NCBI GenBank assembly: GCA_030295235.1
Contig: AP026135.1
Coordinates: 434,001-498,000, forward strand
DNA: 64,000 nt
Reading direction: 5' to 3'
Source: Fistulifera solaris
Taxonomy: Eukaryota
Below, in pieces: positions 5,994-64,000 of the stretch. The notes under the pieces were generated by a model, which was given only the letters and a program-made list of their open reading frames with translations, did no database searches and had not been told where the DNA came from. How positions within the stretch are numbered: the stretch's first letter is position 1; each line of letters starts with the position of its first letter. Made by a program: the position numbers and the translations under genes.

Positions 5994-6009
5994 GGGGGGG
6001 GGGGGGGGG
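5994..6009 (+). repeat. Poly-G homopolymer (G16) between divergent genes
   Basis: Seen directly, between the POP1 start and the coiled-coil gene start. Confidence 0.9.
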
Positions 6010-20800: not shown

Positions 20801-21573
20801 TCAAGGTATCAGAGACACTCAAGAACATTGGCAATGTACACAGAGAGAAAGCAGAGTACGATTTAGCAGTCGAATGTTACGAAGAATGCCTTCGAATTCG
20901 ACGGGCTGAGCTGGGCGATAACCACGAGAAGCTGGCGGACGCCTTAATTGCAATGGGAAACGTTCAAAGTGATATGAACGCCACAAGCGATGCTATGGAA
21001 TCATACAAAGAAGGTACGTTGTGATAAATATTGCTGTTGGCGTTGCAAATGCTAACTAACTCTCTTGTCATTTTTAGCTTTGACCATTCGAATCCGGATC
21101 TTTGGCGAACAAGACGAAAGTGTGGCTGCCGTCTTGCAGTACATGGGTACCTTGGAATTTCGCGCAGCAGAGCTTGACCGCGCTTACCAGCTTTTGGACG
21201 AATTCATTCGCATTCGACAAGAGAACGGAACGGAACCCGACGGTGACTACGTAAACGTCCTTTTATGATCGGCAATATCCACAAGATGCAGGGCAACGAA
21301 GAAGAAGCTCAAAAGTGCTGGACCGAGGCGTACGGTGTCTTCCAAGAGTTGGGTTTGGCAGAAGGCAACCCTCAAATCGCGGAAGTAATGGGAACTTTAG
21401 TAAAAGAGGCCGGTAAGGGCAAGAAAAAGCGACGAACAAAGATGAAGTCTCATTCCTCTTCCAATACGGACGATGAATTGCAGAGCCAAAAGGCATCGGG
21501 TATGTTTGGTTTACTGGCAGGCAAAATCAAAGGTGGCGGAAGAAGAAACAAGGGTGGGCACCAACTATCCTAA
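14885..21573 (+). CDS. Large NLR-like STAND protein: acidic low-complexity N-terminus, NB-ARC-type NTPase, TPR array
   Basis: P-loop GVAGVGKTT (17672-17698), RRFFHDGIAWV, Walker B VLIILDD, LATSRR, MHK at 18764, then many TPR repeats. ORFs join across homopolymer frameshifts (~15770, ~16730, ~19150, ~20285, ~21262) and introns ~20358-20427 and ~21014-21078. Confidence 0.75.
15271..15535 (+). repeat. Coding tandem repeat, 39-bp unit (EGSYYSDE[R/H/Y]GE[D/N]E) with a 78-bp higher-order period, ~6.5 copies
   Basis: Near-identical repeats of gaagagggctcatattattctgacgagcgtgg alternating with gaggaaggttcatattattccgacgaa. Confidence 0.92.
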
Positions 21574-23363: not shown

Positions 23364-23820
23364 GGTAGGGGACGTGTGAAGGAGAACGAATGAATTATCG
23401 AATGTTTTGAAAGGCGAAGAAATGCAACAAAGGTATCTTGACCTTCGGTATTTTGTGTTTATGCGGATCATCGCGACGATTTTGGCGGGGGTGCCGTAGA
23501 AAGAACCGGTACGAGGTACGAGCATAAACAGTTTTCATGAAGAAGAGGCTCTGACACTTTACTACGGAGAACGGAGTACAAGTACTGGTACCGGTACATC
23601 ATTGATAGTTGTATGGTGCATGGTGCTACCCTTGTTCGTGACTGCAAGCAAAACAATCACGCTTGACGCCACTTTCCTTGTTTTTCCGTATTACCAGGTA
23701 CCGTACCGGAGTACTCCATATGAAACGGGTGTGACTTTGTAACGATTATTTTTTCTCCACACAGAATGACATTATTTATTTTTTCTTTCCTTCTATTTGT
23801 TCGTCTCTTTGTCGCCTCCC

Positions 23821-26519: not shown

Positions 26520-29191
26520 TCATAGTGCTCCGGCTCCCTTGCTTCTAAAGAAAGCTTGGAGTTCCTCGACGTGTTTTTGGACTGGTTTGGCATCAAAGGA
26601 AGTGGGAGATCGCTTTAGCCATCCCGGAAGACCGTTTTGAATGCGTTGGTCGGTCAAATAGCGGGTATCCAGAAGGAGAATGGAGGCAAAGTCGTTGGCG
26701 TGTCGGATAGCTCGACCGACCGTTTGGTTGACCGCACGTAAACAGAGATTTTGGTAGTAGGTCTGTCCGGTAATGACGGGTGATCCTCCACCGGTCATTT
26801 GAAAGGAATCCATCAGTGACATCTTTTCTTTCAACACGGGGTCGGTGAGATCCGGATACGGAAGTCCCACGACCACGACGCAGCGAGCCATTTCGTTGCT
26901 AAAATTGATACCTTCTGAAAGCTTACCACCAATGACAGAAAAGAGCAACGCTCCTTTGGAAGAAGCAGCATCACGAGAAAAAGCAAGTAACGTCGAGTCC
27001 ACTTGGTTTTGCAGTTTGGGTTCTCGGTGCAAATGTTTCAACTGTTCCAGCTTGTCCCAGACATGGGTCTTTCTCCATCGACTCACCAGCTGCGCCTCAT
27101 ATTGGTAGCTCGAAACAAAGACAACAACGCCATTCGGAACATTTCCAACAATCTTGATCAAAGCTTCGGCCAGTTCATCAATGATGGTCTCTTTTCCTCG
27201 TACCGTATGTCGAAAGTCCAGAGTTGCCCCAGTGGGCCCAGTGCCCCAGCATTGCAACAAGACATTCGAGTCAGGTACCACATGGTCGCACGAAAAGGCC
27301 GTGAACGACGCCGAAACAAATTGTTGAGAGACTGTCTTTGCAGAGCTCATTTCCGTATCCGCCGTATAAGCCTGTCGAAGGATGGATGGGTGATCGGGAC
27401 CTAACAACTCCGATGCTAAATGTGCAAAGGGGCGCATGGTACCACCCACGAGGGCTACGGCATGAGCCTCACGCAAAAGGTCTTGAAAGAAATACGAAGG
27501 TTTCAACAAGACATATCGCAGCGCCGGATGACGTTGCTGAGTGGATTGTCGAGAACCGGATTCGATTACGGTCGACTTGGGCCAATCGGTCACAATCTTT
27601 CCAGAATCACCAGGAAGTGTCAACTTTTCAATAAAAGCTTGCACCAATGACATGGCTGACACGTGTTTGGAGAGCTCCTGAACTTCTGTCTCTTCCTCTG
27701 ACTCACGTTTCGGAAGAAAGCCCATAAGCTTTTGCGAAAGACGAGATCGCTCCATGTAACGAAGTAGCTTGAACAGATTTATATTGGCTAGTTTCCAATC
27801 AAACAAGAGCTCCGCCACGGTCCGCATCGTAGTGTCATCGCTTGTCTTCTTGTTTTCACCCTGCAGATGTTTTTCCAACGCTTGCACAATTTTCCGGAGT
27901 TGCCCCAAGAATTGAATGTTTCGCGCCGAAAACCGGTCCGCGTAGCGTAGCACATAGTTCTGCAGTTGCATATGGGCCGTCTGCACGACAGGAAGCGACA
28001 GTCGACACGAATGCAATCCCCGTAACGCTTCCGGTAAATTGTGCGCTTCGTCAATGAGGACCAACGATTGTTGCAGGGCAAGACCCACGGCCGCGCGAAC
28101 CGACGACGACAATAACAAATTGTACGGCACCGTGACGACTTCGGCCGCCGGTAACGCCACGCGACTGGCGTAATACGCACACGTGTCTACCGTAGCCCCC
28201 ATGTGCGCGGCTTCTTCAATGTCAGTGGGATGTACTAGAGTATGCAAGGCCAGTGTCTCCACAGCATCACGGGACGACAACAGAGGACAGCCACTGGTCG
28301 ATGATCGTTTCGTTTCGGCCGTCGAACCTTTTGTAAATCCAAGCACGCTTCTGTGAGTGCCGCTTCCGGTTTGTGGTTCAGCTGGGTGTTCCCACACAGT
28401 GCTTTCCGACCCCCAAGGCCACGACACGTAACTCGGATCCCCACACCGTACGACGCAATTCATTGACGAATTGCGTCAATTGCGAATGCGTCCGTGCCGC
28501 GTAAATGATTTTCCGAATGCCCGATCCTGCTACTACTTGAGCTACCGCGGGTGTGGCGGCGAAAGAGCCATCGAGGTAGGGGCCATACAACAACGAAGCC
28601 GCTGGCGACAGTGTCATCGTCGGCTCTTTTTTTCAAAAAGGCATCGTCGTTTTCGTCTTCATCTTCCGAACGGTAATCCAATTTGACTTGCTCCGTTGTT
28701 GGCGGAGTACTCGACGTTCGAGGACGCTTCTTCGTGGATTGTTGTTGTTTCGCCCGAATCACGGCCGTCCGTAATTGCTGTTGCAAGGAGGGCCAGGGCC
28801 GCAATTGTTCGAGGTGTTGTCGTAGTTTCGTGCGCGCTGCTTGTGCCATCTGGATGACTTGTTCTTGTTCCTGCTGTCGATCCCGCGTCAATGGCGGAAC
28901 CCATTCATCCAACCAATCAATACCGGTCGTTTCATCATCCTTCGTCGCAGGATGGAGCAAAAGATCTTGTTGTTCCTGATAACGCAACCATGAGACAGCC
29001 GCACACGCTAAACTGAGTGATTTACCCGTTCCAGTGGGACTTTCTAACATGTAAAGGGGAGCCTGTTGTTGGGAAAAGTCGCGCTGTCGCAGGGACTGCA
29101 ACAAAGCATCCATGAGCGCGACTTGTTGCGGATACGCTTCGAAGGGAAAGGCTACCGATGAACCCGTCGGAAATTCGTCTGGGGCGATCAT
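26520..29191 (-). CDS. CHL1: DDX11/CHL1 XPD-family DNA helicase
   Basis: FPFEAYPQQ, ESPTGTGKSLSL, YAARTHSQLTQF, VALG.RK.LC, CAYYASR, IDEAHNL, GGKLSEGINF, VGLPYP, RAVNQTVGRAIRHANDFA. Several frameshifts at 28.3-28.65 kb. Confidence 0.87.
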
Positions 29192-29517
29192 TTGGTTCGT
29201 GTTTATGGGGTCCTTTCTTCTTCTAGAGTAGAGAAAAGTCAGTTTGCATGGAGACCAGTTGTTTTCCGTGTTGTCATTACGGAGTATTTTTTTCTCGTTT
29301 CGTCTTTTTGGGATGAAATAATAAATAATGCACTTGGGCGGTATAAATTTGACTTTCCCAATGTCGTCCGGTACCCGAACGGAATTATTGAAAGAAAAGT
29401 CTAGTTGTAGCTAGTACCGGTACGACCTACAACTCTAAGGCGTTCCCTGTTCATTTGTGGATACAAGACTGAACATTTGTTTCATTTAAATTAGAAGTAT
29501 CAAGATAAACTACATTC

Positions 29518-33935: not shown

Positions 33936-35298
33936 TTATTGATTTTGGAAATACGCCGCAAAACGACGATGCGCTTCTTGTAACGTTTCGGCATTTTTGC
34001 AATAGGCAAATCGCAACAAATTTTGGGCCAACGGTACATTCTCGGGACTGTAAAATGCCGATGGTGGAATCGCCGTGACACCGACCGTTTGCGTCATCCA
34101 TCGACTGAGGGCCCAATCGCGGGGCATGGGCGTGACCGGCATGGCGGGAGTTTTTTCCATCGAAGGATACGGAAACTCAATCGCCGATGTATCGGCCATG
34201 ATGAAAAAAGCCACCCGCGGGGACAATCGGTGTCATACCGGCCGCTTGCAAAGCTTCTACTAACAATTGTTGTTTTTGATGATAATCGTCGGCCAAATAA
34301 TCATATTAGGACGGCAAGCCCTGATACGGTTGTCGGGCTTGCACTAGTGCTTGCGCAATGGCATCTTGATTGACGGTCGGTGCCGAAAAGGTCACCCATT
34401 GTTGGACGGCGGTCACAGCTTGGACCAAATGGGGTGGTCCAACAGCCCAACCGACTTTCCATCCAGTACAACTGAAGGTTTTGCCGGCCGAACTGAGCGT
34501 CAAGGTTTGATCCCATAACAGGGATGCCATAGGAACGTGGGGTTCTTTGGTTTTATCAAAGACCAAGTATTCGTAAACTTCATCCGCTATGACTGTGATC
34601 CGAGGATGTTTTCGTACAATTTCGGCAATTCCTTCCAACTCTGTTTGCGAAAAGATTTTGCCCGTCGGATTGTGCGGTGTATTCAAAATAAAGGCTTTCG
34701 TCTGCGGCGTAATCGCTCGTTCGAATTCCTCCAAATCGAGTTGGAAGTAATCACTGGCACCGGAGGCGTCCGACGAAGGCCGCAAGGGCACATAGACGGC
34801 TTTCCCACCAGCCATTTGAACTTGACTGCTATAAATATCAAACGCCGGTTCCAATAAAATCACTTCATCTCTGGCTTGAATCAATCCCATCAAGGCACAA
34901 TACAAGGCGTGCGTACATCCGACGGCGGTTGCGATGTGTGTTTCCGCAACTATATCGGTTCTTTGTAATTTGGAATTGTAATCGTCGGCCAAAACGTGGG
35001 CGAGGGGCATATGCGCGGCACTCCGGGCGTATTGATTCGCGTTTCTTTGATAGACGGCGGCGTGCATCGCGTTTTGGACAAAAGCTGGTGGATCTTCCTC
35101 GGGATACCCTTGTCCTAAATTGATGGCTTGATGTTGTGCCGCCAAGGGGGAAAATTCGTGCCAAACGGTCGGACGATCCAAACCTTGCAAACGATCAGCC
35201 AACACGAGCGATGAAAACAAACGACAACCACGACGACTCCTCGTCTGGTGTATCGTGCTACGACTACTCAAAGCCAAGACCGCTTTTCGTAAATTCAT
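33936..35298 (-). CDS. Kynurenine aminotransferase / glutamine transaminase (class I PLP aminotransferase), probable mitochondrial presequence
   Basis: AINLGQGYP, NQYARSAA, ILNTPHNPTGK, DEVYE, SAGKTFSCTGWKVGW, VTAIPPSAFY...LRFAYCK. Frameshifts at ~34.2-34.3 kb. Confidence 0.88.
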
Positions 35299-35343
35299 TG
35301 GTGTAATAATAACAAGAAGTAATGAAAATAATAATAAAAGAGA

Positions 35344-35382
35344 GAATGAATGAATGAATGAATGAATGAATGAATGAATGAA
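35344..35382 (+). repeat. (GAAT)9 microsatellite upstream of the aminotransferase gene
   Basis: Seen directly. Confidence 0.95.
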
Positions 35383-35648
35383 AAAACGAAACGAGATTGT
35401 TTTGCGATGCAACATGGACACATGGATTGGAACAAAAATGACAGCACCGACGCAGTACAGTATCACGTATAGTAGAATCAGTTCGATGCATCGTTCAGTT
35501 TACCATTATTTCACTCTCTACTGGTACAGTACTTGTACTGTGCCCGACGACGACCTCCTTCGTCCCCCTCACAACATCGTCACAACGTGTACGAAACCCA
35601 AAAAACAACATTATCTATCTTTAGACTCTTATAGTGCCATTAAAAGAC

Positions 35649-36832
35649 TCAAGGCCAAAAATGAGCCGCCACACCGACGTGACGTAACGTATGAAAGAGT
35701 TGCAAGCTCTCTTCGATCGTCCCTTGCATCGAAGATTTCCAATCGGGCGCAATCTCTTCCATGTGCACATGATGTTCGAAATAAAAATGATCAATCTTGT
35801 CCGAAAAGTTTGTGGCAATCTGGTTGGCGAGAGGCAATTCCACGGACGGTGTATCGACATCCAATTTGACCACAATCAAATCATCTTCATTGAATCGACT
35901 GAGAATCCAGTGGAGGGGATTGAATTTGTCACCAGGTTCCGGATTGACGGCAACATTGTTCCAATGATACGACGCCATCAAATGCTCTGGCACTTTCGCA
36001 AAGACATCGATTGGATCTTTCAAACTGATTTCGAATGCATAAATGTGATCAAAGAAAAACCCAAATTGGTGATACAGATCCACAATGTACATGGCGGGAC
36101 TTTCGGTGCCGGCATGAAAATCCAACGACGCGCCCATATCAACAAAAACAGTTCGGGTATGATTCTTTAATTGCCGACACAGGGTGGGGAAATCGTGGAC
36201 CATATAGTTCATATTGAGTTTGTAAGTGTCGTGATCAAAACAAAAGAAGGATGCCGCATCGGTGTCAACAAGGGTTCGACGTAACCCGCTCTCGTGTACG
36301 ACAATTGTTGACTGGGGAAGATGGCCGGTAAGCCATCAGGATGCAATTCGAGACTTGCACAGACCTGCTCTTGCGGCACCGTTTGCATTTGCAGACGAAG
36401 ATCTGGAACGGGAGGAAAGTCTGCTATGCGTTGCGAATAATCGCGCAACTCGTGAAGAAATTGTTGTAATTCCTCATAGTAGGGTGTGGAAGTGGGATCT
36501 TTCCAAATGGCGCATCCGGAAGGATTCGAAGGCCGATTCCACCACCACGTTCCAGATTCGGTGGTGGGTGTATTGTAGAACAGCTCAGCGACGTGATTGA
36601 GGACGTATTTCTCGACAATGGCGGGAACGTAGTCGCTGTACGGCTCGCGCTTGTTGATATTGTCGCCGTAGGAAGAATTGTGATACGTCAATTTCTTGCC
36701 ATTGTTATTTTGTCGTAAAGAAGGTGTCGATGAATGAGAGCATCCGAGAAGAGCAGTTTGTGCTTCCAAGTAAAGGCTGACGAGGTCGAATGCTATCACA
36801 ATAGGAAATGCATACTTTATTAACTGATGCAT
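35649..36832 (-). CDS. Type II membrane FkbM-like SAM methyltransferase-fold protein
   Basis: N-terminal anchor; GYVEPL..PMRHP, VFVDMGAS, FDHIYAFE, IVVKLDVDTPSVE, IDHFYFEHH. Frameshift ~36245. Start codon uncertain. Confidence 0.6.
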
Positions 36833-37471
36833 GATGAAGTCCGTCAATCAGTTTCCTATTGACAGTCAATGAAAGGAGAGCCATGGAATTACTGTCTTGT
36901 AAAAAGGCAAAGCCGTGGTTGGATTGGCGCATCGATGAAGCCGGAACGCTGCCGAGCGTCGGCCACGTCACGAAACGTGTCAATGCCGAAGTACGAAACA
37001 AGAAAATCGACCGAAGAATTTGCTCCCGTCATACTAGAGTGTAAAAAACAGAACGCGTGACAGGACTGCAGGATTGGAGGCTTTATACTGAGATCTAATA
37101 TTATATCGTTGGAAAACCGTATATAGACGTTATATTTCCTTAAGTGACTTCACTTTTGGTTGGGGTCGTCCTTCGGACTTCGGACGCGTGTTTTTACGTT
37201 CTGTCGGTAGCGATGCGACTTGAACCGTTGAGTGCCGCTCACGCGAGCGACATCAAGCGGAGCGTTTGATTTCTTCACAACGAAAGAATGTGTTCCATGC
37301 CATTGCAACACAATCCAAATCATTCTAATCGACGATTGAAACAGATCAAGGACTCGAATTGGGCACACCTGTAACAGACGTGTTGGTTTGCAACGAAGCA
37401 GTGGCCCTCGTTCGGGGAAAGTAGAATTTTCGATATTCGATTCGTTCTGCGAGCTCCAGAATCGATAAAGA

Positions 37472-40197: not shown

Positions 40198-40937
40198 CGC
40201 AAAAGGAACGTTCGCCGTTTTTTTGAGCCCACGACGAGGAAGAGACGAGAGAGAGAGCAGCGGAGACGGCGAAAGCCGAACCGGCGACCTTATGGCGACC
40301 GACTGGTCTACACGAATAGTGATACTACCCGTTGATTTGGTACTCGTTTGTTAGGAACGTGGTGCTGTCATTGTCATTCTCTTCAACTAATTAGGCTATG
40401 TGGAACGATAGAATGACGTCCCCGAAGTACTCTTTTGTATGCGGTCGAAAATTTGAAGACAGTTTCTTGTTTTGGGTTCCGCAGTTTTTGTGGAACTCTC
40501 CGAGTGCCGGGTTCAAGGTTACAGGACTTCGAGGGTGATTGTCCACTCCGCAAACTCGATGTACTGTACACGGAAAGGAACTCGACTTGGATGGTGGTGC
40601 ACAAAAGACGGGCAATGGACAAACGATGATGGAATGTCTCAATGTCCGGGTCCCCCTTTCTGCCACCGTCACACATTTTTCACACAACATCATCATCAAT
40701 CATCATCATCGCAGTCAGATTATCGTCCCTTGACAGTTAGTTGGCAGTTGTTGATTTCATTCTTTCCTTTGACATCGTTTTGTAAACCGCTCGTTGAACA
40801 TCCCAAGAAAAAAATAAGTCTACCAGTCAATCCTACGGAAATTGAGGCACTTGCTAGGGTGACGTTTTTCATAGGGTTGGAATTTCCGAAACGACGTAAT
40901 TGATTTTTTCAGCTCCTTATAAAGCTTTTTCTCGGCA

Positions 40938-42842
40938 ATGTGTGCAACCCGTTTCTTCAACAAAAATAATACCCTTTCGGTCCTAATGCCGCTTCTATTC
41001 TTGTCACTGGTACAGCGGATCCACGGCTTTTCTCCAGTCCTATCCGGGCAGATTCGAACACGGCCTCATCGATGGATCCGCTTGGCGAGTTCGACCGTGA
41101 ACGACCTTTCGAGTGAAGAAAAGTCCGCGCTCGAAGAAAAAATCAAATCAACAGGAGATCAAATAAGGGCACTGAAAGAATCGGGGGCAAATAAAGATAC
41201 ATTCGCGCCATTGGTACAAGAACTCTTGAAACTCAAGGCCCAACTCGATCCTGCGCTGGCCAAACCTACCCAAACCAAAAAGACACAGCAACAGAAGAAG
41301 CAACACTCGAACGAAGAGGAATCGGATTTTATTACGGCGCGCTCGGTGGATTACTCAAAGTGGTACAATGATCTCATTCGCGTGGCGGGTTTGGCGGAAA
41401 CATCGCCGGTACGTGGATGCATGGTCATCAAACCGTGGGGAATGTCATTATGGGATCGGGTTCGCAACGAACTCGATGCCAAGATTCAGAATCGGGGTGT
41501 GGAGAATGCTTATTTCCCGCTCCTGATTCCCAAATCGTTCTTGTCCAAAGAAGCCGAGCACGTCGATGGCTTTGCCACCGAATGTGCGGTGGTGACACAC
41601 CACCGCTTGACGGCGGATCCGGACGGCAGTGGTCTGATTGCGGATCCCGAGGCCAAATTGGAAGATCCATTGATCATTCGTCCGACATCCGAGACCATGA
41701 TTTGGTACATGTTCCGCAAGTGGATCAATAGTCACCGGGATTTGCCGCTCAAGATCAACCAGTGGGCTAACGTGATGCGCTGGGAAATGCGAACCCGTCC
41801 CTTCCTCAGAACATCTGAATTTTTGTGGCAAGAGGGACACACGGCCCACGCCACAGCAGAAGATGCGGTCGAAGAAGCAAGGGCCATGTTGGATGTATAT
41901 GCCGATCTCTGTCAGGATCTTCTGTCGATCCCTGTCGTCAAAGGCGTCAAGAGTCCGTCCGAACGATTTGCGGGAGCGTCAGATACATACACAATTGAAG
42001 CCCTCATGCAGAATGGCTGGGCGCTACAATCCGGCACTTCGCACTTTTTGGGCCAATCATTTGGCAATGCGTTTGATGTTACTTTTCAGGATCAGAATGG
42101 AGAACAACAACCTGTTTGGGGAACGTCATGGGGCGTATCGACCCGCTTGTTGGGTGCTCTCATCATGACCCACTCCGACGATGCAGGGCTTGTCTTGCCA
42201 CCAAAGGTAGCACCTGTGCAAGTCGTAATTGTTACTATCCCACCGAAGAAATCAGACGGTCCAGAGGTACAGCAAAGACTCAATGCAGCAGTTGACGATT
42301 TGGTTGAGAAATTGAAAGCGAAAGGTATCCGGGTGAAAGTTGACGATCGCGACTATGTGCGAAGCGGTGCAAAGTACTTTGAGTGGGAACGAAAGGGTGT
42401 TCCTCTCAGGATTGAAATCGGTCCACGCGATGTTCAAAATGAAGTATGCGTGTTCAAATACAGAGTGGGCGATGTCGAAAGAAAAAGCGTATCGTGGGTA
42501 GATGCCGCGCAGATGGTTGAAAGTGGTTTGAAAGAATTTCAGAGTGCTCTCCTGGAAAGAGCGAACGAACGTCTGCAAGATGGTATTCGTCAAGGGGCGA
42601 CGTATGCGGAAATGAAAAGCTTATTGGAAAATGATGAGGCTTCGGAGTACAACGGTCCTGGACTTTTCCTCGTCCCATGGAAGTGCGATGCTGACAATGA
42701 AAGAAAAATCAAAGAAGAATGCAAGGCAACGATTCGATGCTATCCACTTAAAGAGAATCAGGAGGGCATGCATGAGGGCCAAAAATGCTTCTATAGTGGC
42801 GAAGAAGCAACTCATATGGCTCTATTCGGTCGCGCTTTTTAA
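40938..42842 (+). CDS. proS: Proline--tRNA ligase (archaeal/eukaryotic-type, organelle-targeted, WHEP-like N-terminal segment)
   Basis: YSKWY, PVRGCMVIKPWG, IRPTSET, RDLPLKINQWANVMRWE, FLWQEGHTAH, LQSGTSHFLGQ, SWGVSTR, KATIRCYP, FGRAF. Signal peptide with IHG-FSP; the real start may be 40986. Confidence 0.93.
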   Translation: MCATRFFNKNNTLSVLMPLLFLSLVQRIHGFSPVLSGQIRTRPHRWIRLASSTVNDLSSEEKSALEEKIKSTGDQIRALKESGANKDTFAPLVQELLKLKAQLDPALAKPTQTKKTQQQKKQHSNEEESDFITARSVDYSKWYNDLIRVAGLAETSPVRGCMVIKPWGMSLWDRVRNELDAKIQNRGVENAYFPLLIPKSFLSKEAEHVDGFATECAVVTHHRLTADPDGSGLIADPEAKLEDPLIIRPTSETMIWYMFRKWINSHRDLPLKINQWANVMRWEMRTRPFLRTSEFLWQEGHTAHATAEDAVEEARAMLDVYADLCQDLLSIPVVKGVKSPSERFAGASDTYTIEALMQNGWALQSGTSHFLGQSFGNAFDVTFQDQNGEQQPVWGTSWGVSTRLLGALIMTHSDDAGLVLPPKVAPVQVVIVTIPPKKSDGPEVQQRLNAAVDDLVEKLKAKGIRVKVDDRDYVRSGAKYFEWERKGVPLRIEIGPRDVQNEVCVFKYRVGDVERKSVSWVDAAQMVESGLKEFQSALLERANERLQDGIRQGATYAEMKSLLENDEASEYNGPGLFLVPWKCDADNERKIKEECKATIRCYPLKENQEGMHEGQKCFYSGEEATHMALFGRAF

Positions 42843-48827: not shown

Positions 48828-49990
48828 TCAGTTGCCTGCCTCGACGGGTTTAAGAGCCGCTGGAACGTCCACAACCGATGATGATGTTTGATCGGATGAA
48901 GCCGCATTCAGCGGCAGCTGGTCCTCTGGCAGTTGCGACAAAAACGCCGCTTTCACAAGCTCTTGCAGTTCCGCTTCGGTCCGGCCCGCAGAATCAATGG
49001 CGGGATGGACATGCAGATGCAATTTTCCACGTCCCGGTTGCACGGGAAACAACGAGACACTAGGCATCACAGCGTGGGCGTGAGATATGGTAATGGGAAT
49101 GATGGGGACACCGGCCTTGGTCGCCATCGAAAAAAGACCCCTTTGAAATCCATCAGTCGACCGTCCTGAGACCGTTTCCCTTCCGGAAATGCCATGATGG
49201 GTACTCCATTTTGAGCCAATTCAGTCCGTCTTTGAATGTACGAAGCTGTGATCTTTTGTCTTCGCGATCAATGATAATGTGATCGCCCTGTTGACAACAA
49301 TGAGTAAAGTGAATGAATTTACAAACACAAATACAATTCCAACTTACTCCGGTGAGTTGTTGACCTATGCAAGGAACATTTTTGAGTTCTCCTTTGGCGA
49401 TGAACTTGAAGACAGGGTCAAGGACGGTGCAAAGAATGGGAATGTCCAACCAAGACGCATGGTTGGCGACGTAAAGACACGGCCCCTGACCCTGCCGTAG
49501 CGACTCAATTTCTCCCGAGTAGGTTGGGATACTATTGGTTAAAGCGAGCCACGATTTCGCCCAGATTTTACCCGTCCTAAGTGTCGAACATGAGAAGTCA
49601 TGTTTCATCTTAAGAGAAATCACAAAGATCAGAAACTTACTTATCGTAAATGGCTCGTTGCGGATCAAAGTCTTCATTCATGTTGTGTGCCATTTTCACC
49701 ATGCTCATGGCTAGGGTCCATATGGGAGCTAACGTCAGAGACACCACAGCACACCACAAGCCAAAGGCATTGACCACTTTTATCGAGCTTTTGTCTTTAT
49801 TGAGAGTAATGATCGGATTGATTTCTTCCAGAGAAAGAAAATAACTATGCTTCCGGTGATCGTCCTGCTCTACAACGCTGTGAATTCGAGTGATCGAGCT
49901 GGAGACAGTCGGCCGTTGTGGAAGAAAAGCATCGGCTTGAAAGACGTAGAATAAAACGGTTGCAATCGGCAACTTTCCGACTTGTCTCAT
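48828..49990 (-). CDS. Plastid 1-acyl-sn-glycerol-3-phosphate acyltransferase (LPAAT)
   Basis: Bipartite signal with ADA-FLP; YVANHASWLDIP, FKFIAKGEL, FPEG.RS.DGR, VPIIPITI. Introns ~49640-49578 and ~49348-49289; small frameshifts. Confidence 0.87.
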
Positions 49991-54200: not shown

Positions 54201-57200
54201 ACTCATGTCGTAGCCTCTCGGTCTCGCTGACGGACGCACGCAGCTTATCAAGCTCGCACTCTTTTTCAGAAAGTAGAGCAATTTGCTTCCTTGAAACTAC
54301 TTCCATATCCGCTTCGTAGCGCTGTTTTTGCTCCAAGAACATTTCGTTCTGCTCTTTCAATTCTTTCTTCAATTTATTCGCCTCCAACTCTGCATCTTTC
54401 AACGATTCGGATAGTACCTTGCAATTCTCCTTTGCGGATTCAATGTTTGTCTCTAGTTTCTGGCGCTCTACATAGTGCGCCGCCCTCCAGCTCTGAAATT
54501 CATTCTCTGTGTGTGCATTCTTCTTTCGTAAGCATTTTAGCTCATCTTCGAGTGAACTGTTCACTTCCTTGATAGTGGATAGCTGCTCTTCTAAACGCGA
54601 CTTTTCCTGAAGCAACCCATAGCACTTCGCTTCGACTGAAGATAGAGCTTCTTGAGATACAGCGATCGTTTGTTCTGACACCTTCGCTTTGGCAAGTGCT
54701 TCCTCTCGCTCTCGCTGTAACTCTAAGCGCAGTCGGGAGCATCGATCTTCTGATTCAGATGCACTTTTGCGAATTGACCTGAGAATGGTCTCCATTGTCG
54801 CTTTTTGAGAACGAAGAGAGGAGCATTCTTCGGTCAGCTCCACGATTTTGGAATTCATTTCTTCTCTGGTAGTAGTATAAGATTCGTTCGTTTTCGAGAA
54901 GTGGGCACTCAAATCAGAGTACTGTGAATATGCTGCTTCCAAGCTTGATTTGCAGCTAGTCAGTTCCTCCCGGGCTCGAAACAATGAGTCTCGGACATCC
55001 TGCAACTCATCGTCCCGCTTCAAAACCTCCATTCGTTTTTCAGAGAGCTGTAACTCTGTAGCCTCTAAAGCTTTGCGAAGCTCTTCGATTTGATCTGCTA
55101 ACTCCTCGTTTAGACGTCGAAGAGACACTATTTCTTGCTGGGAAATTGACTTCGATGACTCAAGAGATGTGCATCTTTGTGCGATCTCTGCGACCTCTCG
55201 TCTAGCTTCCGCAAGATTAGCTTCACAATGTGCCTTCTCTTTTCCAAGCAGTACTTCAAAGCGTTCTTCTTCCTCCTTACGAACCATAGCCTCTCGAGTT
55301 GGCCAGGAGAGTAGTTCCCCTTCGAGATGCCTTACCTTTACCAACGTAGCAGCAAGTTTCTCCTCGCACTCGATCTTCTTCGTCATCATCTCGTTCAACT
55401 TGTTTTCTAAGTCATGAAGCCGCCTTGCAGTTGCAGTTGCTTCTTCGGACTGAGATATGATCATCTCGCTTTGCTTCTTAGTTTTCTCAGACAGTTCATT
55501 CAACTCTTGTTGATACTTTTCTTGATTCACTGAAGCGGTATCACGCAAAATGATCAGTTCCTTATGAAGAGCATTTAGCGAATCCTGCTGCTGCAAATTC
55601 TCTGCTTCTGCTAACTCAAGGTTCTTTCCAAGATCTTTGATCGTCTGTTCATTGCTTTGCATATTCTTCCTTAAACGGCTTGTCTCGTCATTTCGTTCGT
55701 CCAACAGAGACGTTCGAGTCTCGAGCTGATTCTCTAAGGCTTCGATTCTGGATTGGTAAGTAGCTTCGGCTCTCTCCCTGTCCTCTCTTAACGAAGCAAG
55801 TAGATCATGCAGATTGTTCTTCAGCGCCTCTTTGTCCTCACAAGTTCGTCGCTTCTCTGCTTCGTGGGATCCCTGCATACTACGTATTTCCAAAGCCATC
55901 CGGGACCTTTCTTCGTCAAACGCTCTGATCTTACTTGACAGGGAGGTCATTCAAGCGTGCAACTTCTCGCTTGTGTATATTCTCTTGCTCTTCCATCTTT
56001 ATGTTCATTAGAAGTAGCTGGCGTTCGCTTGCCTCTAACCTAGCTTGGTAGATCTCTACATCTCGCTGCAATAAAGAATCCGATGCCTCGAAATCCTTAA
56101 CTTTTGTGTTTTCAAATGAGGAGAGGTGGAGTGTAGATGCCTCGTGATCTCGACGTTCACTTCTTGGTGCTACTCCCTCCAGTAGTTCCATCTGCTGTCT
56201 CATTCGATCATTTTGAGCACGAACATCCTCAAAAGCCAAATCCCACTGTTCGATCTCATTTGTCTGCTGTTTTTGAAGAGTGTTCCGGTACGCTACTAGA
56301 GAAGCCTCGGCCATTTGCTTCTCTCGGCGCGATATCATCAATTCCTCTTCCATTCGCTGTCGCTCCGCGATAATAAGATTACTTTGCTGATCCATCAATT
56401 CCTTTTGTTGGAGCAAAGTAATCCGTGCTTGACTTAATTCCTGTAGCAAGTCATACTTTTGCTCGAATCCCGACCGGAACTCGTTACTGCCGTCCGATCG
56501 CGACGATTCGAAAGTGCTGCCATGAATCGATCCGACACCTCGTATTGGCACGACGCCTGCGACCGTATCCAGAATCTTTTGCAGGGCAGCTCGTTTATTT
56601 TTGCCAAATACGACTCGACTTTGCTGTGGAAGTGCCTTGACATTAGCAGGCGAAAGAAGATTATCCGCTCCGTTGCTTTCGAAAGCGGTTTTGCGAGGTT
56701 CACTTTCGACGGCTCTCAGCGACATCATCGATGGATTTGGAGTGACCTGAATAGTGCGACCGATTCTACCCGTCGTTTTAGGAGGGGAATTCATGATCGA
56801 CTTATTACACGGACGTCGGAATGTCATTTCTCGTGTAGTAGTCTGTTCTTGTAGTAGCTCAAGAGTCTGTTCATAGGATGATACCGGTTGTCCATTCACT
56901 GCAATGACCTCATCTCCGGGCTGAATTACTCCCGACTTTCTTGCCGCTCCTGGATTCTGAAAACCACCGTCAACAAATTTTTGCACGCGAATGGCAGAGT
57001 GACTGTCTTCGTCCAACTCTAAACCAATGGGCCCCGGAGAGAAGACGACGGAGTACGAAACATAATCAGGAGAATGATTGTGATCTCGTCTGGGTGCTTT
57101 CCGATGCGAGAGTTTCGCTTTCACTTTCTTTTTCGGAGTGACAGAGTTATGCGAGATCAACGTTCCGAAACGACGGCCGTCTTGACGTCGAGGAGGCTGA

Positions 57201-57294
57201 TTAGGCAAAAGAGACAAATATATTAGTTGACGTTCTCTCGCCGTATTGATACAGATTCGCGCCAAATGATACTTACAGTCTTAGAGCCAAGCAT
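51298..57294 (-). CDS. Giant (~1,900 aa) coiled-coil protein with N-terminal PDZ domain
   Basis: Exon MLGSKT (57294-57277), intron to ~57197, then PGPIGLEL...GVIQPGDEVIAVNG (PDZ). Heptad-rich ORFs 55931-57265, 53749-55950, 53522-53776, 51901-53553 and 51298-51657 join across frameshifts. Confidence 0.7.
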
Positions 57295-57823
57295 CACTTT
57301 CGCTTTGAAAAAGAGTTCGCAGCTATAACTGAACGATAAATAACTAAGTATTCAATAAAGTAAAGGGAATGGTTTTGCCACCATGAGGGGCAAAGTGCAG
57401 AGCAATCAAAAGATCAAAAGAAAAAACGACGAGGGAAGACAGTGTCGTTTCGTGAGACCCATAAAACGAGCCCTAGGGTAAAATCTTCAGATTTGAATAT
57501 GAGTATTTCGCCGGCATAGGCATGCCTTCCTAAGTACTTCGTGACACCGCGTGCCCTTATGCTAAATGAACTGTGAATTTTGAAAATTCGTAATTCCACT
57601 TTTAGGCTGCTGAATACCGGACGACAGTCAGTTAGGAAACCGGATTATCTTCGCAAATTCCCTAACCCTAATAAAAATACTCCGGCGTTAAAACTATTCC
57701 GCTCTCTCTCGAGATTTCCGACTTGCTAAGGTTACCCACTAAAAAAACCTTGAATTTCACAAAAGGTGTAACACTTTCATCAACCAATACTAGTTACTCG
57801 ACTATTTTCTGTAAACACCGCAT

Positions 57824-60800
57824 TTAACGCGCAGAAAATCCACAATTTTGAGCCCCGAATATGTTGTCTGGGTCGAGAGCCCGTTTGAGGTTTTGCTTTG
57901 CATCGATCCACTGTGGCGAGTCAATGTCACCGAGAAAAGCGGAACGCGTCTTGCCGATCCCATGATGGTGACTGAGCGAGCCACCAAGTCGCAGAATCTC
58001 TTCCCGGGCAGCATGCTCGATATCCAAGAATACGCGACTCGGGTTTGTAACGTTTGCACTGCTCATCGAGAAGTAAAAATACAAACAAGCACCCTCGTGG
58101 TACAACTGTGTCACACGACATCCAATAAAAGGAGATCCAGGTAGACATCGTTGTGCATGCTCCCTTCGTATGCGATCTTTTACAGAATCGACCACAGTTT
58201 TGATTTTCGACCACGGCACAAAGCTCTCAAATGAGTCTCCCAGAAAATTGTACGTGAGAGCAAAATCGCGAAGATAAGCGATGAGAAAGGTAAAATTGTA
58301 GCCTTGTTCTCCCACAGCTGCGCCCAAATTAAAACCACCATGGCGACTTATCAGTTTCTTTAACATTTGCTTTTGTGAATCGACTTCTTCGCGTGATCCT
58401 TCATAAAGGATGGTTGTACATACAGTCGACATGGAGTCAAAGTCTTGTCTCCATTTCAAGTAAAGTTCACCTGCACTTTGCCGTAAAGATTGTAGCACGG
58501 AATCCGGATTGGCTCGTAAAGCCCGTCCTAATCGAAAGTGATCGTTGTCCAAAAGACGAATACTGGCCGGGCAACGAGACCCCAATCTTTGTACGTCGCG
58601 AACAAAAGAAAGTCCGTGATCAAAAGAAGGTAGCAAGACACTGTCGTAATCTTGCACCTTTGATAGCGGCCAAATCCGTATTACGGCACTAGTAATGATT
58701 CCAAGACACCCCTCTGAACCGAGGACGACGCCAAGAAGTTCCAAGCCAGTAGCTTCACGTCCCCATACCGGAAAATCACCCCCTCGGCTACTATGGGCCA
58801 TGATTCCTTCCGGACCCGCAACACGAACCGAAATAACAATGTCTTCAATATTCCCATACTTGGTTCTCTTCATGCCACTAGCTTTCGTGGCGATCCAGCC
58901 TCCAAGCGTGCTAAACTCGTAGCTGTCTGGTTGATGACCTATTGTATATCCAAACCGCTTCATCTCTTGGACAAGTTCTCTACCAGTAATTCCACACTCG
59001 ACATGTGCGACTTCATTTTCCTCGTCAACAGCCAAAATTTTTCGCATTTCGGTCATGTCCACAGATATTATTGGTCTAGGGTCGACGTCGATACTTGGGC
59101 ACTTTGTTGCTTGAGACACATTTGTACCCCCCACCAAAAGGAATCAAACACCAATTTTGGGATTGTGCCATGCGAATAAGTTCTACCACTTGACCTTCGG
59201 AGGAAGGCCACACAACAGCATCAGGGACTCGGCCAACAGAGCCATTGCGTACGTCCCAAATGTCTGCCAATGAGTGACCAGTTCCATGTCGAATAAGCTC
59301 GTTGTCTTCGTACGAAACTTTCCAGGAGATTTTCTCCAAGAATACTTTGTTTTCTGAAGAAAGGGTAGACAAAGGAGATCTACTGGCTGCCGCAACATAT
59401 TGGAATGCTTCATTATAAAGATCAATTGATAACCCCGTTTCTCTCTGGAGAAAAGGAACAAGGTCACTGAGCTGTTTGCCTGCAGAGGAATATTTATTCC
59501 CATCCATCGTAACGTAAGCGCCGCCGCTTTCATGTGGCTTGATGACGAAAAATGAATCGCTAAATCCCCAAAAGCCCAGTCGCTCTCCCGAGGAAAGACT
59601 TGCGTTATTTATCTTCGGGAATTCCGTGAGCAACGGAGAAGCGTTGTCATCTTTCTGAAACTTATCGCGTAACTCGTGTGATATTGCAGCTTTCACCAAT
59701 ACTATTGGACACCTCTTCTTTGTTAATATAAATTGAAGAACATGGCAGGCTTCGGGGTTTGGAAAGCCGTTAGCTTTGAGCTGCGCTAGAGCATCTTTCA
59801 CACACTCCGTTGCCTCGTCAAATTGATGCAGCAAAGCCAGTGTCACAGCGGAAACAGAAGCTTTATCGAATATTGTTTTGTCCACAGTGTTCTCAACGTG
59901 AAAAAAGAGCCACTGGGCCCATAGTGGTCTTGATTCAATAAACAATGGTGCAAGGTACGCACTAGCCTGAAGTGCTACGGTCCAAAGTTCGTCCTGATCA
60001 GAAGGAATCGAAGAAATATAACCTTCCTCCCGTAACCACAGCCTACAACCCAGCTCGGAGAGAGCTTCCTTGACAACTGACGGTGTAAGGCCGAGAAGAT
60101 GAGCAAGGGCTGATATATGGTATGAAGATACCATCACCTGAGATGCCTGTCGTCGTTGAATTTCGATCACTAAATCATCAATATTATTATTCTCTGCGCT
60201 GGGAAGTGTGACTGCGTCGCAAGCAGAGAGCCACGCCTGCCGAGTCGAATTTCTCCGCTAAAGGCCGCCTGTGTAACCGGTGCATAGGGCGTGGGGCGTT
60301 AGCGACGACGATGACACATTGGCACATGCAACGAGACTTACAAATGCCCACGAGAGCAAACCCTTGGTACTTATGTCATCAGCCGACGAATTCCGGATAT
60401 CCTCGACTAATGATGGTTGCTCCGGTATCTTTTCATAGGACATTGTTATCGGGATAATGCAGTATTTGTGACTGTTTGTCGATAGGCAGCGGAGTACACC
60501 AGTTTTTGGACGCACAAACCGCCTGTCTCGGCTTCTAGTGCCCTCAAGAAAGACTTCAATAACTGCACTTGCTGGTAGCTCATTTAAACTTGCTTCGAGT
60601 GAAGGGTCAATGCGACCACGATTTCGTTTGACGAAGACCGCACCCAGAAGTTTTGCCATGATCCCAAACACGGGAAGCCGCTCAAAACTATCTGCTGAAA
60701 TGATAAAAGGTAAATCAATACCTAATTCTGGGAGTGCAAAGCACACATAACTCAGTAACAAGAAGTCGAAAAATGATCGGTGTGTCGAAGCAAGGATTAT

Positions 60801-63800
60801 CCTTGTGTTCTTATTCATTTTCAGGTCACGGAGAACGTCGCAAAAACTCCCCAAATCAACAATCACGCTACTGAATATAGAACATAGAAGTCTGTTCAAC
60901 AAAGCTCCCACAACCCTGACAGCAATCGGTCCCTTTGGCTGCATGAAAGCCCACAACCAAGCTTGAATCCAAGAGCACTGCTCATTCCCTGCGACTTGGA
61001 TGTCTGCAACCTTCGGCATCACACTGTTTACCCGTTCCCGCTGTAAGAAGCGCGATGCACTTGATAGGCAGATCATCATATAACGTTCACCATCGAAATC
61101 CGGAGGAGCAATCAAGTCGGAAGAAAAATAGAACGATGAATTCATGAAAGGAAAGAAAAGAACGGGTAGATCGAGAAAACGACTAAATCTTCTGCCTTGG
61201 TCCATGCAGTAGCCACAAGAAGTATAGAAAGCAAGCAGTGCGCTGAAAGGGTTTTCCACAAAAAGTTGGTGCAGTTGTTTAAAGCGTGACACCGTTAAGT
61301 TTCTCGGTAGAACACGCGTCGCAACCCAAAGGCCTAAATACGCAGTTAAGCGACTGAAGTATCCAAGGATCACACCAGTCTGAGTAATTGCGACAGCAAA
61401 TTGAAGCCAGGTAAACTGAGACTTAGTATTGGACGACACATCCCAAGCGGCAACATGTATCGTGTATCTAGGCTTCGATCTTTCAGCATAGATTGAAACC
61501 TTCTCAAAGTCTTCATCCGACGACGAGGATCGATCTTCTTCTGATTCGGAGGATGACAGTCGGTGGCGAATAGTTTTGTTAGCAATAAATCGAGCAAGAA
61601 CATCGACCGGGATGCAGGGCACTGCATGGTCACCGAAGGACCAAATATTCCACTGATACGAGAAATAGAGACACGGGGCGGCAGTTATTGTTGAGGGCCT
61701 GGATCCAGCCCATCCTTTCAAAGATTCACAGACTGCAGGACCGACAATGCTCGGACGTATAATTATCGTGTTTAAAGAGATATTCTGGAGGAGATGCTCA
61801 ACTACGCACTTGCTAAGTTGGTAGGCGTTGGAGAAACCCAAATCATTCATAGCTTTTGTCGCATAGTATTGGGTTCCACACATCGACTTGTAAACGTCGA
61901 CAGGGTCGTAAGGTTTCATGTCAAACAGATTGTTGCCCAATGGACTATCTATCGATCCTTTTGATCACCATGAACGAAAGCAGTGCTGATATGAACAAAA
62001 TTGACTTCTTGGTATGGCAGTTCAGCTGCTAGGCGTTGGACGTTCAACGCCGAAGAAATATTGGATTCAGCCGCCTCCTGCAATGACTGAGTAAAGCTGA
62101 CAGTTGCAGCACAATTGTAAACATGCGTAATGAACGGTTCTTCTTTTAGCTGTTCAAGGCTTTCCGCGGCCAGACCAGCGTTTGCCTGGCTTATGTCACC
62201 CGGCATGACAACAATGGCTGAGAAAAGGTCATCTTTGGGCACGCACGAAAAGATTGGATTTTCGAGCAAGCGATGTATCCTCTCGTCGGAGGAAAGGCCC
62301 CCTTCGGCCGAACTATGACATAGATTCGTTTAATAGAGTATTGTCGTCGGCGGCAGAGCAATTCACGGAGAATCGTCGAACCAACGAAACCGGTAACACC
62401 TGTTAATAAAACGGAACGTTCCGTGTCGCCGGTATCGAAATCAGAATGAGTTTCATCGACGACGTCGACGAAGTTTAGATCATCCAAATTTTTAGTCACT
62501 GTTGAAGGATGCTTGGACCCCAAATCGAACAAATATGAATATTTTGCGAAAGCGTTGGAACTTTCGAGGTAAAAGGAGGCCATTTTCAAACGTAAAAACT
62601 GCGTCGCGAGGATCGCAGTAGCAATGACACACACCATGACAGAGAATAGTATGGTGCAAACTTTTACCAGGAAAGTGCTGAAGCCATAGAATATGGAGAA
62701 AATGAATGAAAAGGCAACCCATGAGCGAAATGAAAAAGCAACGTTTTTGGCTTTCATAGTCTTCATTCCTACCCCGGCCCCGAAATTGCTTATGGATTGT
62801 GGTAGATTGTTGATCCAGTGTGATGATATTCGATGTGCCCCATTGGACACGGGCAAATACATAATTCGTTTCATAACACTGTAAGCGCGCGGGCATTTCT
62901 CGGACTCCCCCTATGCAACGGAGCTGCGATGCACCTTGCGTGGCATCAATTCCATGGTTCGTCAAATATACACAAAGATCCTGCACATTGTTAGCAAGTA
63001 CAGGGAAAAGCCAACATGCGTGAAAGTAGGAAGGATCCAGAAAGCGTGGGACTCTCACATCTGCTTGATGCCGGAGAACGTCGGCCAAACGTCCACAATG
63101 CCGTCGACGCGCCGAAATGAGTTCAGCTGTGCCTTTTCCCTGCTTCATACGGCGAATCAATAAAGCAAGCAAGCTAGAACACGGCATAAATCTGATCTGG
63201 GCCATGTAGTCACCTCTCACTTCAGTCGAGCTTTTGAAGCCACGAGTAAGGGCTGTAGCGAAAGTATCGAAGTCCAAGCGAACGCTTCGAAAGAATGAAA
63301 CCAACAGTCCATAAATGACGGGATGGTCCGTAACTAGTCGAATAAGTAATGCTTTGCAGACTTTGGAGAAGAAAACTGCATAGGACTGGCGATCGGGGTA
63401 GCAAGCTGAAAACAGACGCTTCATAGATTCATGCGTTTCTTTGTCGCGCACGATAGCCACGCCACCGCCCAACGCTGTCGCCGTTTTAATGAAACCGAAA
63501 GAGAAAAGAACAATATCCGAATATGGACTCCCGAGGTAAGTGCCGGTATCGTTTTCAGTCTCTGGAAGCCCACCAAAGCACTCCGCACAGTCTTCAATTA
63601 ATTCCACACCGCGACTTCTACAAACCGTGTGTATCCTTTGCATATCTTCCGAGCTCGCCGTTAGCATTCCAAAGACATGAACGACAATAATGGCGACCGT
63701 TTTGTCTGTTATCGCGTGTTCCACTGCATTCATATCCACCAATATGAAAGGCCTGTCTCCGTTGTGTTCTGGGATATCAACAGGGACGACTTCTAATCGA

Positions 63801-64000
63801 TGATGTCGTAAGACCTCTTCGATTCCGGGAACTGTAATAGGCGGACAAATGATAATTTGCGATCCCGAAGGAAATCGTTTTGTGCGTAAGTACAGATCGA
63901 GAAGAGTCCTAGCAGAAAATCCAGGTATTACTCCAACATTCTTCCCCACACTTTGCTGCCATAAATCAATGATTTCTTGTTCGTAGTAACTAGTATTCGG
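57824..64000 (-). CDS. Multidomain fusion: DegT/DnrJ-type PLP aminotransferase, TM hairpin, fatty acyl-CoA reductase, DHAP acyltransferase (GNPAT-like), alkyl-DHAP synthase (AGPS); 5' end lies beyond the window
   Basis: DegT: IEDCAE, SFGFIKTATALGGG. FAR: LLTGVTGFVG, VYNCAATVSF, HISTAFV, NAYQLSK, IIRPSIV. GNPAT: THRSFFDF, FLEGTRSR, IPITMSYE. AGPS: WGFSD, PDAVVWP, PFGGGTNV, GHQPDSYEFSTLGGW, GMKRTKYGNIED, SHHHGIGK. Domain junctions fall inside ORFs; breaks are short indels and one intron (~60340-60270). Confidence 0.8.

Follow-up and report, generated by a model that had tools for sequence, protein, structure and literature searches.

The question raised by the locus at positions 57824-64000 of the analyzed stretch (the window, 64,000 nucleotides of contig AP026135.1 of the diatom Fistulifera solaris) is whether its minus strand encodes one multidomain enzyme of ether-lipid synthesis, and, if so, what an aminotransferase is doing in it. 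In the established pathway, FAR produces the fatty alcohol, GNPAT produces the acyl derivative of dihydroxyacetone phosphate (DHAP), and AGPS exchanges the acyl group for an alkyl one. An earlier reading made from the letters alone (the sequence-only reading) had proposed that an aminotransferase, a FAR, a DHAPAT-type acyltransferase and an AGPS are fused here in pathway order, forming a four-module protein of novel architecture whose frame is restored by one-nucleotide changes. Our analysis indicates that the locus is very probably a single fused gene with at least five modules and a hydrophobic hairpin, that its frame breaks are likely assembly errors, and that its product would form the front end of ether-lipid synthesis.

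According to the list of open reading frames (ORFs) of the window, the minus strand of 57824-64000 is covered by a chain of six overlapping stop-to-stop frames, and the Pfam matches are distributed over all of them. DegT_DnrJ_EryC1 (4e-21) is found in the piece 62492-64000. NAD_binding_4 is shared by three pieces, with profile positions 1-34 in 62191-62910, 32-145 in 61949-62329, and 168-258 in 60258-61964, the last of these also holding Acyltransferase (5e-19). FAD_binding_4 is divided between 59076-60257 (profile positions 1-37) and 57824-59143 (positions 42-135), the latter piece also containing FAD-oxidase_C (1e-31). The profile coordinates run consecutively across the frame changes. Hence both the placement of the domain junctions inside ORFs and the five profiles named by the sequence-only reading are borne out by Pfam on the six pieces.

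The relative search has identified P0001, marked as the window's own protein (2220 residues, 99% identical to the query), and the break sites were placed by walking this model along the window DNA. Residues 187-2220 of P0001 are read exactly from the window after five one-nucleotide changes and the removal of one intron, all on the minus strand. Three of the breaks are in G-runs, at 62907-62911 (break 1; 5 G, open reading requires 4), 62298-62302 (break 2; 5 G, 6 required) and 59127-59132 (break 5; 6 G, 5 required), and one is in the A-run 61959-61962 (break 3; 4 A, 5 required). At the remaining one (break 4, 60237-60238), 'AG' stands at a required Lys codon, one base short and outside any long run. 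The intron (60341-60269, 73 nucleotides, GTAAGT...CAG, that is, of the GT-AG type) follows codon 1406. These positions agree with the earlier placement of the homopolymer breaks (G-runs near 62907-62911, 62300 and 59130, A-run near 61960), while what had been described as a GT-AG intron plus a further indel near 60.2-60.3 kb is now resolved into this intron and the one-base gap of break 4.

Four of the five breaks lie inside G or A runs of 4-6 nucleotides, they go in both directions (+1 and -1), and no segment contains an internal stop over 2034 codons. The protein ends with ...GFSAR at the stop codon TAA (57826-57824), and the gene starts beyond 64000, residues 1-186 of P0001 being outside the window. 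The window carries the 3' 92% of a single nuclear diatom gene with a product of about 2220 residues. The GC content varies between 0.43 and 0.50 along the window with no compositional break, Rfam yields no match in the window, and no tandem repeats are found in 56000-64000.

The five one-nucleotide breaks are most likely assembly errors and not mutations, because they are single bases, mostly in runs, in both directions and with no internal stops, because the relative P0002 (86% identical) aligns without interruption over positions 1-1408, that is, across breaks 1-3, and because other genes of the same window show the same defect. In particular, the Arp6-like gene at 21680-23363 (minus strand) is split over three frames by two one-nucleotide frameshifts near 22947-22962 and 22510-22519. 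An Actin-family Pfam profile runs through three overlapping ORFs at 21680-23534, and the closest Arp6 relative (P0256, 79% identical) is matched in three pieces in frames -3, -2 and -1, which overlap in the DNA and are contiguous in protein coordinates (1-134, 130-279 and 277-529). Two frameshifts in 1.7 kb is the same rate as in the fusion gene.

The layout of the full-length protein, from the N-terminus, is ACBP, a DegT-like aminotransferase dependent on pyridoxal phosphate (PLP), a hydrophobic hairpin, FAR, a DHAPAT-type acyltransferase, and AGPS. The four modules expected from the earlier reading are all present; its count was too low, since there are at least five with ACBP, plus the hairpin, and the window itself holds only residues 187-2220. 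ACBP (PF00887, 2.8e-17) occupies residues 18-96 of P0001, beyond 64000, so that this assignment holds for the model and not for the window DNA. The DegT domain (PF01041, 4e-21) comprises residues 187-575 of P0001, with its window part at 62833-64000, its start beyond 64000, and the PLP lysine K358 at 63485-63487. Pfam covers residues 186-384, and the extent to about 575 was set by the alignment with a bacterial homologue from the locus L025 (see below). Between DegT and FAR there is a hydrophobic stretch (62584-62721, residues 613-658), likely a membrane hairpin, with a Kyte-Doolittle peak of 2.67 in a 19-residue window. The FAR motif was located in 38 orthologues, and 37 of these have a matching hydrophobic window with a value of at least 1.89 at the equivalent place; this conserved hairpin suggests a membrane-anchored enzyme.

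FAR (NAD_binding_4, PF07993, 61584-62406, residues 718-992) is matched in P0001 with 1.4e-42 over profile positions 1-258. Its Rossmann motif GxTGxxG (GVTGFVGS) is at 62377-62400, and the catalytic YxxxK (YQLSK) at residues 913-917. The acyltransferase of the GPAT/DHAPAT family (PF01553, 5e-19, 60438-60815, residues 1249-1374) contains HRSFFD and EGTRSR. Its best NCBIfam match is PlsB (2e-15, far under the cut-off), and the profile of the diatom acyltransferase (AT) region matches the bacterial FAR-AT gene of L025 at 1e-58, and not the neighbouring acyltransferase of the PlsC type. It belongs to the PlsB/GPAT branch, and its preference for DHAP is suggested by context, namely the fusion to FAR and AGPS.

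The C-terminal module (57827-59576, residues from about 1638 to 2220) consists of FAD_binding_4 (58799-59225, residues 1755-1896) and FAD-oxidase_C (57854-58660, residues 1943-2211), and carries the HHH motif (SHHHG) at 57962-57970. In a PDB search it matches residues 237-656 of guinea-pig AGPS with E 1.4e-111 (another AGPS match has 2.5e-65), the nearest non-AGPS family being D-lactate dehydrogenase (3.4e-18), and the piece upstream of this match aligns with AGPS residues 94-240. In the alignment with 4bby the active-site Tyr in the stretch C-L-Y-F-Y-F is retained, being Phe in the mutant 4bca, and SLSHHHG is identical; the catalytic roles of this Tyr and of the HHH loop we take to be those known from the guinea-pig structures. 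By these matches the module is identified as AGPS. All the catalytic motifs that had been described as intact (GVTGFVGS, YQLSK, HRSFFD, EGTRSR, SHHHG) are indeed present.

The fusion is not restricted to this window. The relative search has yielded 132 relatives, of which the 120 listed were classed by the domains of P0001: ACBP-DegT-FAR-AT-AGPS is seen in 34 of them, DegT-FAR-AT-AGPS in 9, ACBP-DegT-FAR-AT in 52, DegT-FAR-AT in 13, FAR-AT-AGPS in 6, AT-AGPS in 5, and FAR-AT in one. Hence 43 of the 120 listed relatives have DegT, FAR, AT and AGPS in a single chain, 34 of them with ACBP. The named sources are Nitzschia inconspicua, Seminavis robusta, Cyclostephanos, Stephanodiscus, Discostella, Thalassiosira exigua, Skeletonema marinoi and Nitzschia sp. 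Nitz4, which span two classes, Bacillariophyceae and Thalassiosirophyceae. Moreover, P0087, an ORF from an MMETSP transcript marked 'type:complete', has all six Pfam domains.

Invariance was scored in an alignment of the 43 full-length orthologues, which are 36-46% identical to P0001. Invariant residues are K358 and D323 in DegT; G720, T722, G723, G726, Y913 and K917 in FAR; H1260, D1265, E1339, G1340, R1342, S1343 and R1344 in the acyltransferase; and long invariant stretches are found in AGPS. Among the 66 of the 120 listed relatives that lack AGPS, similarity is lost at P0001 positions 1400-1412, the site of the intron, in 40, while 20 end at about 1357 and 6 elsewhere. The inspected members of the 1400-1412 class (P0002, P0003, P0005, P0007 and P0017) run into a 'V...' tail, which is the GT donor. 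Most of the short forms are therefore ORFs that gene callers have cut at introns, and not another architecture.

The fusion is therefore genuine, conserved across diatoms, and uncharacterized, but it is not new as a sequence: some of the relatives are automatically named 'alkylglycerone-phosphate synthase' in public sources. The single-gene fusion suggested by the sequence-only reading holds, given its continuity in one frame after the one-nucleotide changes and the intron, and its conservation in diatoms. The lack of a characterized protein, noted along with it, stands, but the architecture is found beyond this record, in 43 of the 120 listed relatives.

The module most difficult to place is DegT. 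Its Pfam score is 76 bits against a cut-off of 19.8, with the C-terminal half outside the profile match. It matches 36 solved sugar aminotransferases, though weakly (best 3.7e-9), K358 and D323 falling opposite the corresponding Lys and Asp in 7n63 and QdtB. All relatives with a solved structure are aminotransferases or dehydratases of the sugar or cyclitol kind. No named sugar-aminotransferase equivalog (PseC, ArnB, WecE, DesI) was identified among the NCBIfam families, the eight matches scoring 20-53 bits against cut-offs of 375-650, with the best at 53 bits versus 423. A search of the ESM Atlas with the DegT part has retrieved only generic bacterial DegT clusters. The domain belongs to an uncharacterized subfamily.

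With the DegT part as query, the library search has produced 3203 relatives at E<=1e-3, of which 165 also reach E<=1e-30; the best 150 were classed. Among these 150, 58 are diatom-type fusions, and 92 contain no other domain of the five diatom-built profiles, their median length being 414 residues. A C-terminal peroxisomal targeting signal 1 (PTS1, [SAC][KRH][LM]) is found in 24 of these 92, with about 0.2 expected by chance. Source names were looked up for ten of the 24, and the named ones include Nematostella, Octopus bimaculoides, Saccoglossus and Strigamia; Lytechinus pictus and Diadema antillarum are also named among the sources of the subfamily. Of the six named records, that of Strigamia is annotated as a DegT family protein and the remaining five as 'uncharacterized' or 'predicted'. 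Named examples of stand-alone DegT-like proteins with SKL, AKL or SRL ends, within P0143-P0225, are P0162, P0164, P0212, P0160 and P0179, and such proteins occur in Nematostella, Octopus, Saccoglossus, Strigamia and Lytechinus. Judging by the tails, invertebrate animals seem to have a peroxisomal aminotransferase family that has gone unnoticed.

A tree of 155 DegT domains was made with FastTree, after 8 of the 163 rows had been removed because of their odd envelope length and with one outgroup row retained. In it the diatom domains form one clade with support 100, whose sister (support 96) is a clade of 23 rows that includes the animals and in which 16 rows are PTS1-tagged. Other fusions of the subfamily are also found. 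In P0148 and P0200 (1000 residues) DegT is combined with a glycerol-3-phosphate dehydrogenase/oxidase (NCBIfam 1e-73 to 1e-74, under the equivalog cut-off), an enzyme yielding DHAP. In P0187 a domain of the DegT subfamily is fused to ACBP, and in P0199 to an Exo_endo_phos domain, a member of its cluster being named as a Terriglobia bacterium. Fusions of DegT with FAD_binding_4 (P0156, P0214 and P0223) were considered as a possible link to AGPS and dropped, as their FAD part is of the lactone-oxidase/DprE1 type.

In bacteria, 80 AGPS loci were fetched, many of them with AGPS followed by FAR-AT, and the DegT subfamily is present in one, L025. On this contig from a Gemmatimonadaceae metagenome-assembled genome, AGPS (67-1866), FAR-AT (1867-4011), DegT (4008-5204) and an AGPAT-like acyltransferase (5201-5995) form a four-gene operon on the plus strand, the starts and stops abutting or overlapping, and over its full length the DegT protein shares 33% identity with the diatom domain. 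Eight further loci (L086, L087, L094-L099) came from genome searches, making nine bacterial DegT loci with L025. In L086 a HAD-IB phosphatase gene is 5' of DegT, and an AGPS-like gene and FAR are convergent on it; in L087 a GNAT-domain gene is 5' of DegT; in L095, L096 and L097 a PF01553 acyltransferase directly abuts DegT; in L098 a GMC oxidoreductase is just upstream; in L099 an inositol-monophosphatase-family gene and an Exo_endo_phos gene are 5' of DegT; and in L094 there is no telling neighbour. A PF01553 acyltransferase is adjacent in four of the nine loci. The genome search was made at E<=1e-40 with the six best candidates per genome scored, so the counts are lower bounds: the subfamily is present in at least 0 of 301 genomes of Acidobacteriota, at least 3 of 301 of Gemmatimonadota, and at least 5 of 301 of Myxococcota.

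The established roles of FAR, GNPAT and AGPS lead to the following proposal for the diatom enzyme. ACBP would hand acyl-CoA both to FAR, giving fatty alcohol, and to the acyltransferase, giving acyl-DHAP, and AGPS would then replace the acyl group by the alkyl one, giving 1-O-alkyl-DHAP, with all the steps on one membrane-anchored polypeptide. The order FAR-AT-AGPS is the pathway order, as had been suggested earlier, while the aminotransferase has no place in the textbook pathway. The sole ketone of the ether-lipid pathway is at C2 of DHAP and of its acyl and alkyl derivatives. What the gene contexts of the DegT subfamily have in common is an acyltransferase, a phosphatase from the class acting on amino-alcohol phosphates, and an enzyme by which the glycerone-phosphate backbone is made or carried. 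From this pattern, from the only pathway ketone being at C2, and from the precedent of RtxA (see below), we propose that DegT transfers an amino group to the C2 ketone of the glycerone backbone, be it in DHAP, acyl-DHAP or alkyl-DHAP. This would yield a 2-amino (serinol-phosphate) lipid precursor, formed instead of or beside the usual reduced alkyl-glycerol-3-phosphate. This assignment of DegT is tentative, and we give it somewhat less than an even chance.

Some of the observations speak against the proposed explanation, and they concern in turn the intactness of the gene, the identity of the enzyme, and the amination step. P0001 cannot be spelled letter for letter from the window as given; its source is either another sequence version or a gene model corrected against the genome, and as it may be such a genome-corrected model, its intactness is no independent proof. 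With this witness set aside, five frame breaks in 6.2 kb of the window as given, one of them (60237-60238) outside any long homopolymer, could be real mutations in a pseudogene that makes no full-length protein. A pseudogene is nevertheless very improbable, as there is no in-frame stop over the 2034 codons, every diatom-invariant residue is kept, four breaks fall in G or A runs with +1 and -1 both represented, close relatives read through the same sites, and the conserved Arp6 has two equivalent frameshifts in the same window, where other genes cross frames as well. One could also suppose that the modules are separate adjacent genes and the long database proteins merged gene models, given the 66 of 120 listed relatives without the AGPS part and the published diatom AGPS proteins: in the AGPS dataset of PMC13012113 (file 5), those of Phaeodactylum, Fragilariopsis and Pseudo-nitzschia have 554-564 residues and start with 'MKG(T/N)RY...'. 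The first residue of these entries is, however, a Met internal to the N-terminal region of AGPS, in a segment conserved in the fusion consensus, so that reference gene models appear to split this gene. Moreover, three of the four domain junctions are inside single ORFs of the window, the remaining gap is the 73-nucleotide GT-AG intron, too short for an intergenic region, the short forms stop at intron sites, with the five inspected ones running into the donor, and the transcript-derived P0087 covers all domains, which makes merging of separate genes extremely improbable. As for the enzyme, neither P0001 nor four orthologues show a Sterile domain (PF03015) at E<=0.001, while the bacterial FAR of L086 has one, and the preference of the acyltransferase for DHAP versus glycerol-3-phosphate cannot be read from the sequence. 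PTS1 is present in none of the 43 full-length orthologues (five of these being C-terminally truncated), the window protein ending with -SAR; in this they differ from animal GNPAT and AGPS and from the stand-alone DegT relatives.

As regards the amination step, AGPS or FAR is found within 10 kb in only two of the nine bacterial DegT loci, and none of the five DegT-positive Myxococcota genomes has a strong AGPS match: the best ones are 1e-61 to 1e-62 with 32-34% identity, and matches of 1e-148 or better are seen in 32 of the 301 Myxococcota genomes. Therefore the substrate could be DHAP or acyl-DHAP, and not alkyl-DHAP. Otherwise, the substrates for which the DegT family is known are sugars. The fusion may make ordinary alkyl-DHAP, with DegT acting as a dimerization scaffold, a head-group sugar aminotransferase, or a fatty-aldehyde enzyme, an explanation that comes close to an even chance. 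It agrees with the solved relatives all being sugar or cyclitol aminotransferases or dehydratases, with the P0223-type fusion to the lactone-oxidase/DprE1 FAD domains, which suggests sugar-like substrates, and with the subfamily occurring without AGPS in Myxococcota; pairs of a reductase and a transaminase that aminate aldehydes occur in polyketide alkaloid pathways. A mere scaffold is at odds with the PLP Lys and the Asp being invariant in the 43 orthologues. The fusion to the glycerol-3-phosphate dehydrogenase/oxidase, the PF01553 neighbours in four of nine loci, the AGPS/FAR-AT/DegT operon, the HAD-IB phosphatase and the PTS1 tails all favour glycerone-phosphate lipid chemistry over nucleotide sugars.

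A broader proposal, possible but less likely than not, is that DegT and its stand-alone relatives are an unrecognized family of (acyl/alkyl-)DHAP aminotransferases that divert the keto intermediate into 2-amino (serinol-backbone) lipids, in which case diatoms would make undescribed 1-O-alkyl-2-amino lipids on one megaenzyme. The family would then span PTS1-tagged proteins of cnidarians, molluscs, hemichordates, arthropods and echinoderms, and bacterial genes with acyltransferases, AGPS or FAR as neighbours. Such chemistry may also lie behind the 'serinolipids' reported from marine animals, which contain serinol and are ether-linked. Serinol has been described in the serinolipids of didemnid tunicates (PMC7344992, PMC6264260).

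The remaining part of the window contains ordinary eukaryotic neighbours, namely the N-terminal region of VPS13, running off the window (273-1391, minus strand), a Vps4-like AAA ATPase (8996-9877, minus), a class I/II aminotransferase (34309-35499, minus) and a prolyl-tRNA synthetase with a WHEP domain (40923-42839, plus). ORF chains in changing frames are also seen at 14861-21021, 26523-29410 and 35649-36847. The first of them (plus strand) consists of five overlapping or abutting ORFs with NB-ARC at 16700-19198 and TPR repeats at 19132-20424 and 20428-21021, and has the appearance of a single large gene of the STAND type, interrupted by frame changes and one stop. The second (minus strand) is a helicase of the XPD/Rad3 type (DEAD_2, Helicase_C_2), whose N-terminal part lies in another frame that overlaps (28463-29410). 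At 49156-49677 (minus strand) there is a further PF01553 acyltransferase fragment, which matches only profile positions 8-71 of 132 and probably belongs to one more gene interrupted by a frame break or an intron. Among the homopolymers of the window a run of 16 G at 5994-6009 is the longest, and runs of nine A or T are at 14353, 31508, 44736 and 47182.

Diatoms rank with the most important primary producers, and much work has been devoted to their lipid pathways. One polypeptide leading from acyl-CoA and DHAP to alkyl-DHAP would lend itself to studies of substrate channelling and could serve as a compact element in ether-lipid engineering. The conserved aminotransferase is the main puzzle, and the PTS1 of its relatives and their operons with AGPS, FAR-AT and acyltransferases may point to an unrecognized amination branch of the DHAP lipid pathway. 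The literature search found no paper on the diatom fusion, on diatom alkyl ether lipids, or on a lipid-linked DegT aminotransferase. A 2026 eukaryote-wide survey (PMC13012113) reports FARAT in Ciliophora, Amoebozoa and Discoba and calls FAR, GNPAT and AGPS 'patchy' in SAR; the word diatom is absent from its main text, and among the 12 of its 15 supplementary files searched the diatom names looked for occur only in files 1, 5 and 12. Cryptophyte FAR and AGPS, expressed in Phaeodactylum, are treated as separate proteins in PMC9244630.

Comparison with known systems shows how far each of them resembles the diatom protein. Animal FAR1, GNPAT and AGPS perform the same three chemistries, and the catalytic Tyr and HHH of AGPS are retained. 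The animal enzymes are separate proteins, two of which are imported into the peroxisomal matrix by targeting signals, while the diatom has a single chain, which is probably membrane-anchored and includes an aminotransferase in addition. The sugar aminotransferases QdtB, PseC, ArnB and 2-deoxy-scyllo-inosose aminotransferase are of the same fold family as DegT, with the PLP Lys and Asp aligned, but their similarity to the diatom domain is at E 4e-9 or weaker, and the diatom context is lipid and not sugar.

The reaction type proposed for DegT, PLP-dependent amination at C2 of DHAP, is that of RtxA's N-terminal domain from Bradyrhizobium elkanii, a DHAP aminotransferase yielding serinol phosphate (PMC3222319); the two are compared by reaction and not by sequence, and RtxA makes a soluble toxin precursor, not a lipid. 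Bacterial pairs of AGPS and FAR-AT genes, such as MXAN_1676/1675 of Myxococcus xanthus (PMC13012113), are homologous to the diatom modules (27-47% identity) and physically linked, with L025 adding DegT and a second acyltransferase, but they are separate genes, usually in the order AGPS, FAR-AT, and DegT is present in one of the 80 loci. The two-domain precedent mentioned in the sequence-only reading, FARAT, is described as a bifunctional FAR-GNPAT in Tetrahymena thermophila (1,140 residues) and Dictyostelium (PMC13012113). As in FARAT, FAR is N-terminal to a DHAPAT-type acyltransferase in one chain that would supply both AGPS precursors, and in the window the ORF 60258-61964 holds the end of NAD_binding_4 and Acyltransferase, with FAR first. 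The diatom protein differs in having ACBP, DegT and the hairpin upstream and AGPS downstream, in its approximately twofold length, and in the lack of PTS1, and it is best filed as an extension of the FARAT idea to the whole front end of ether-lipid synthesis.

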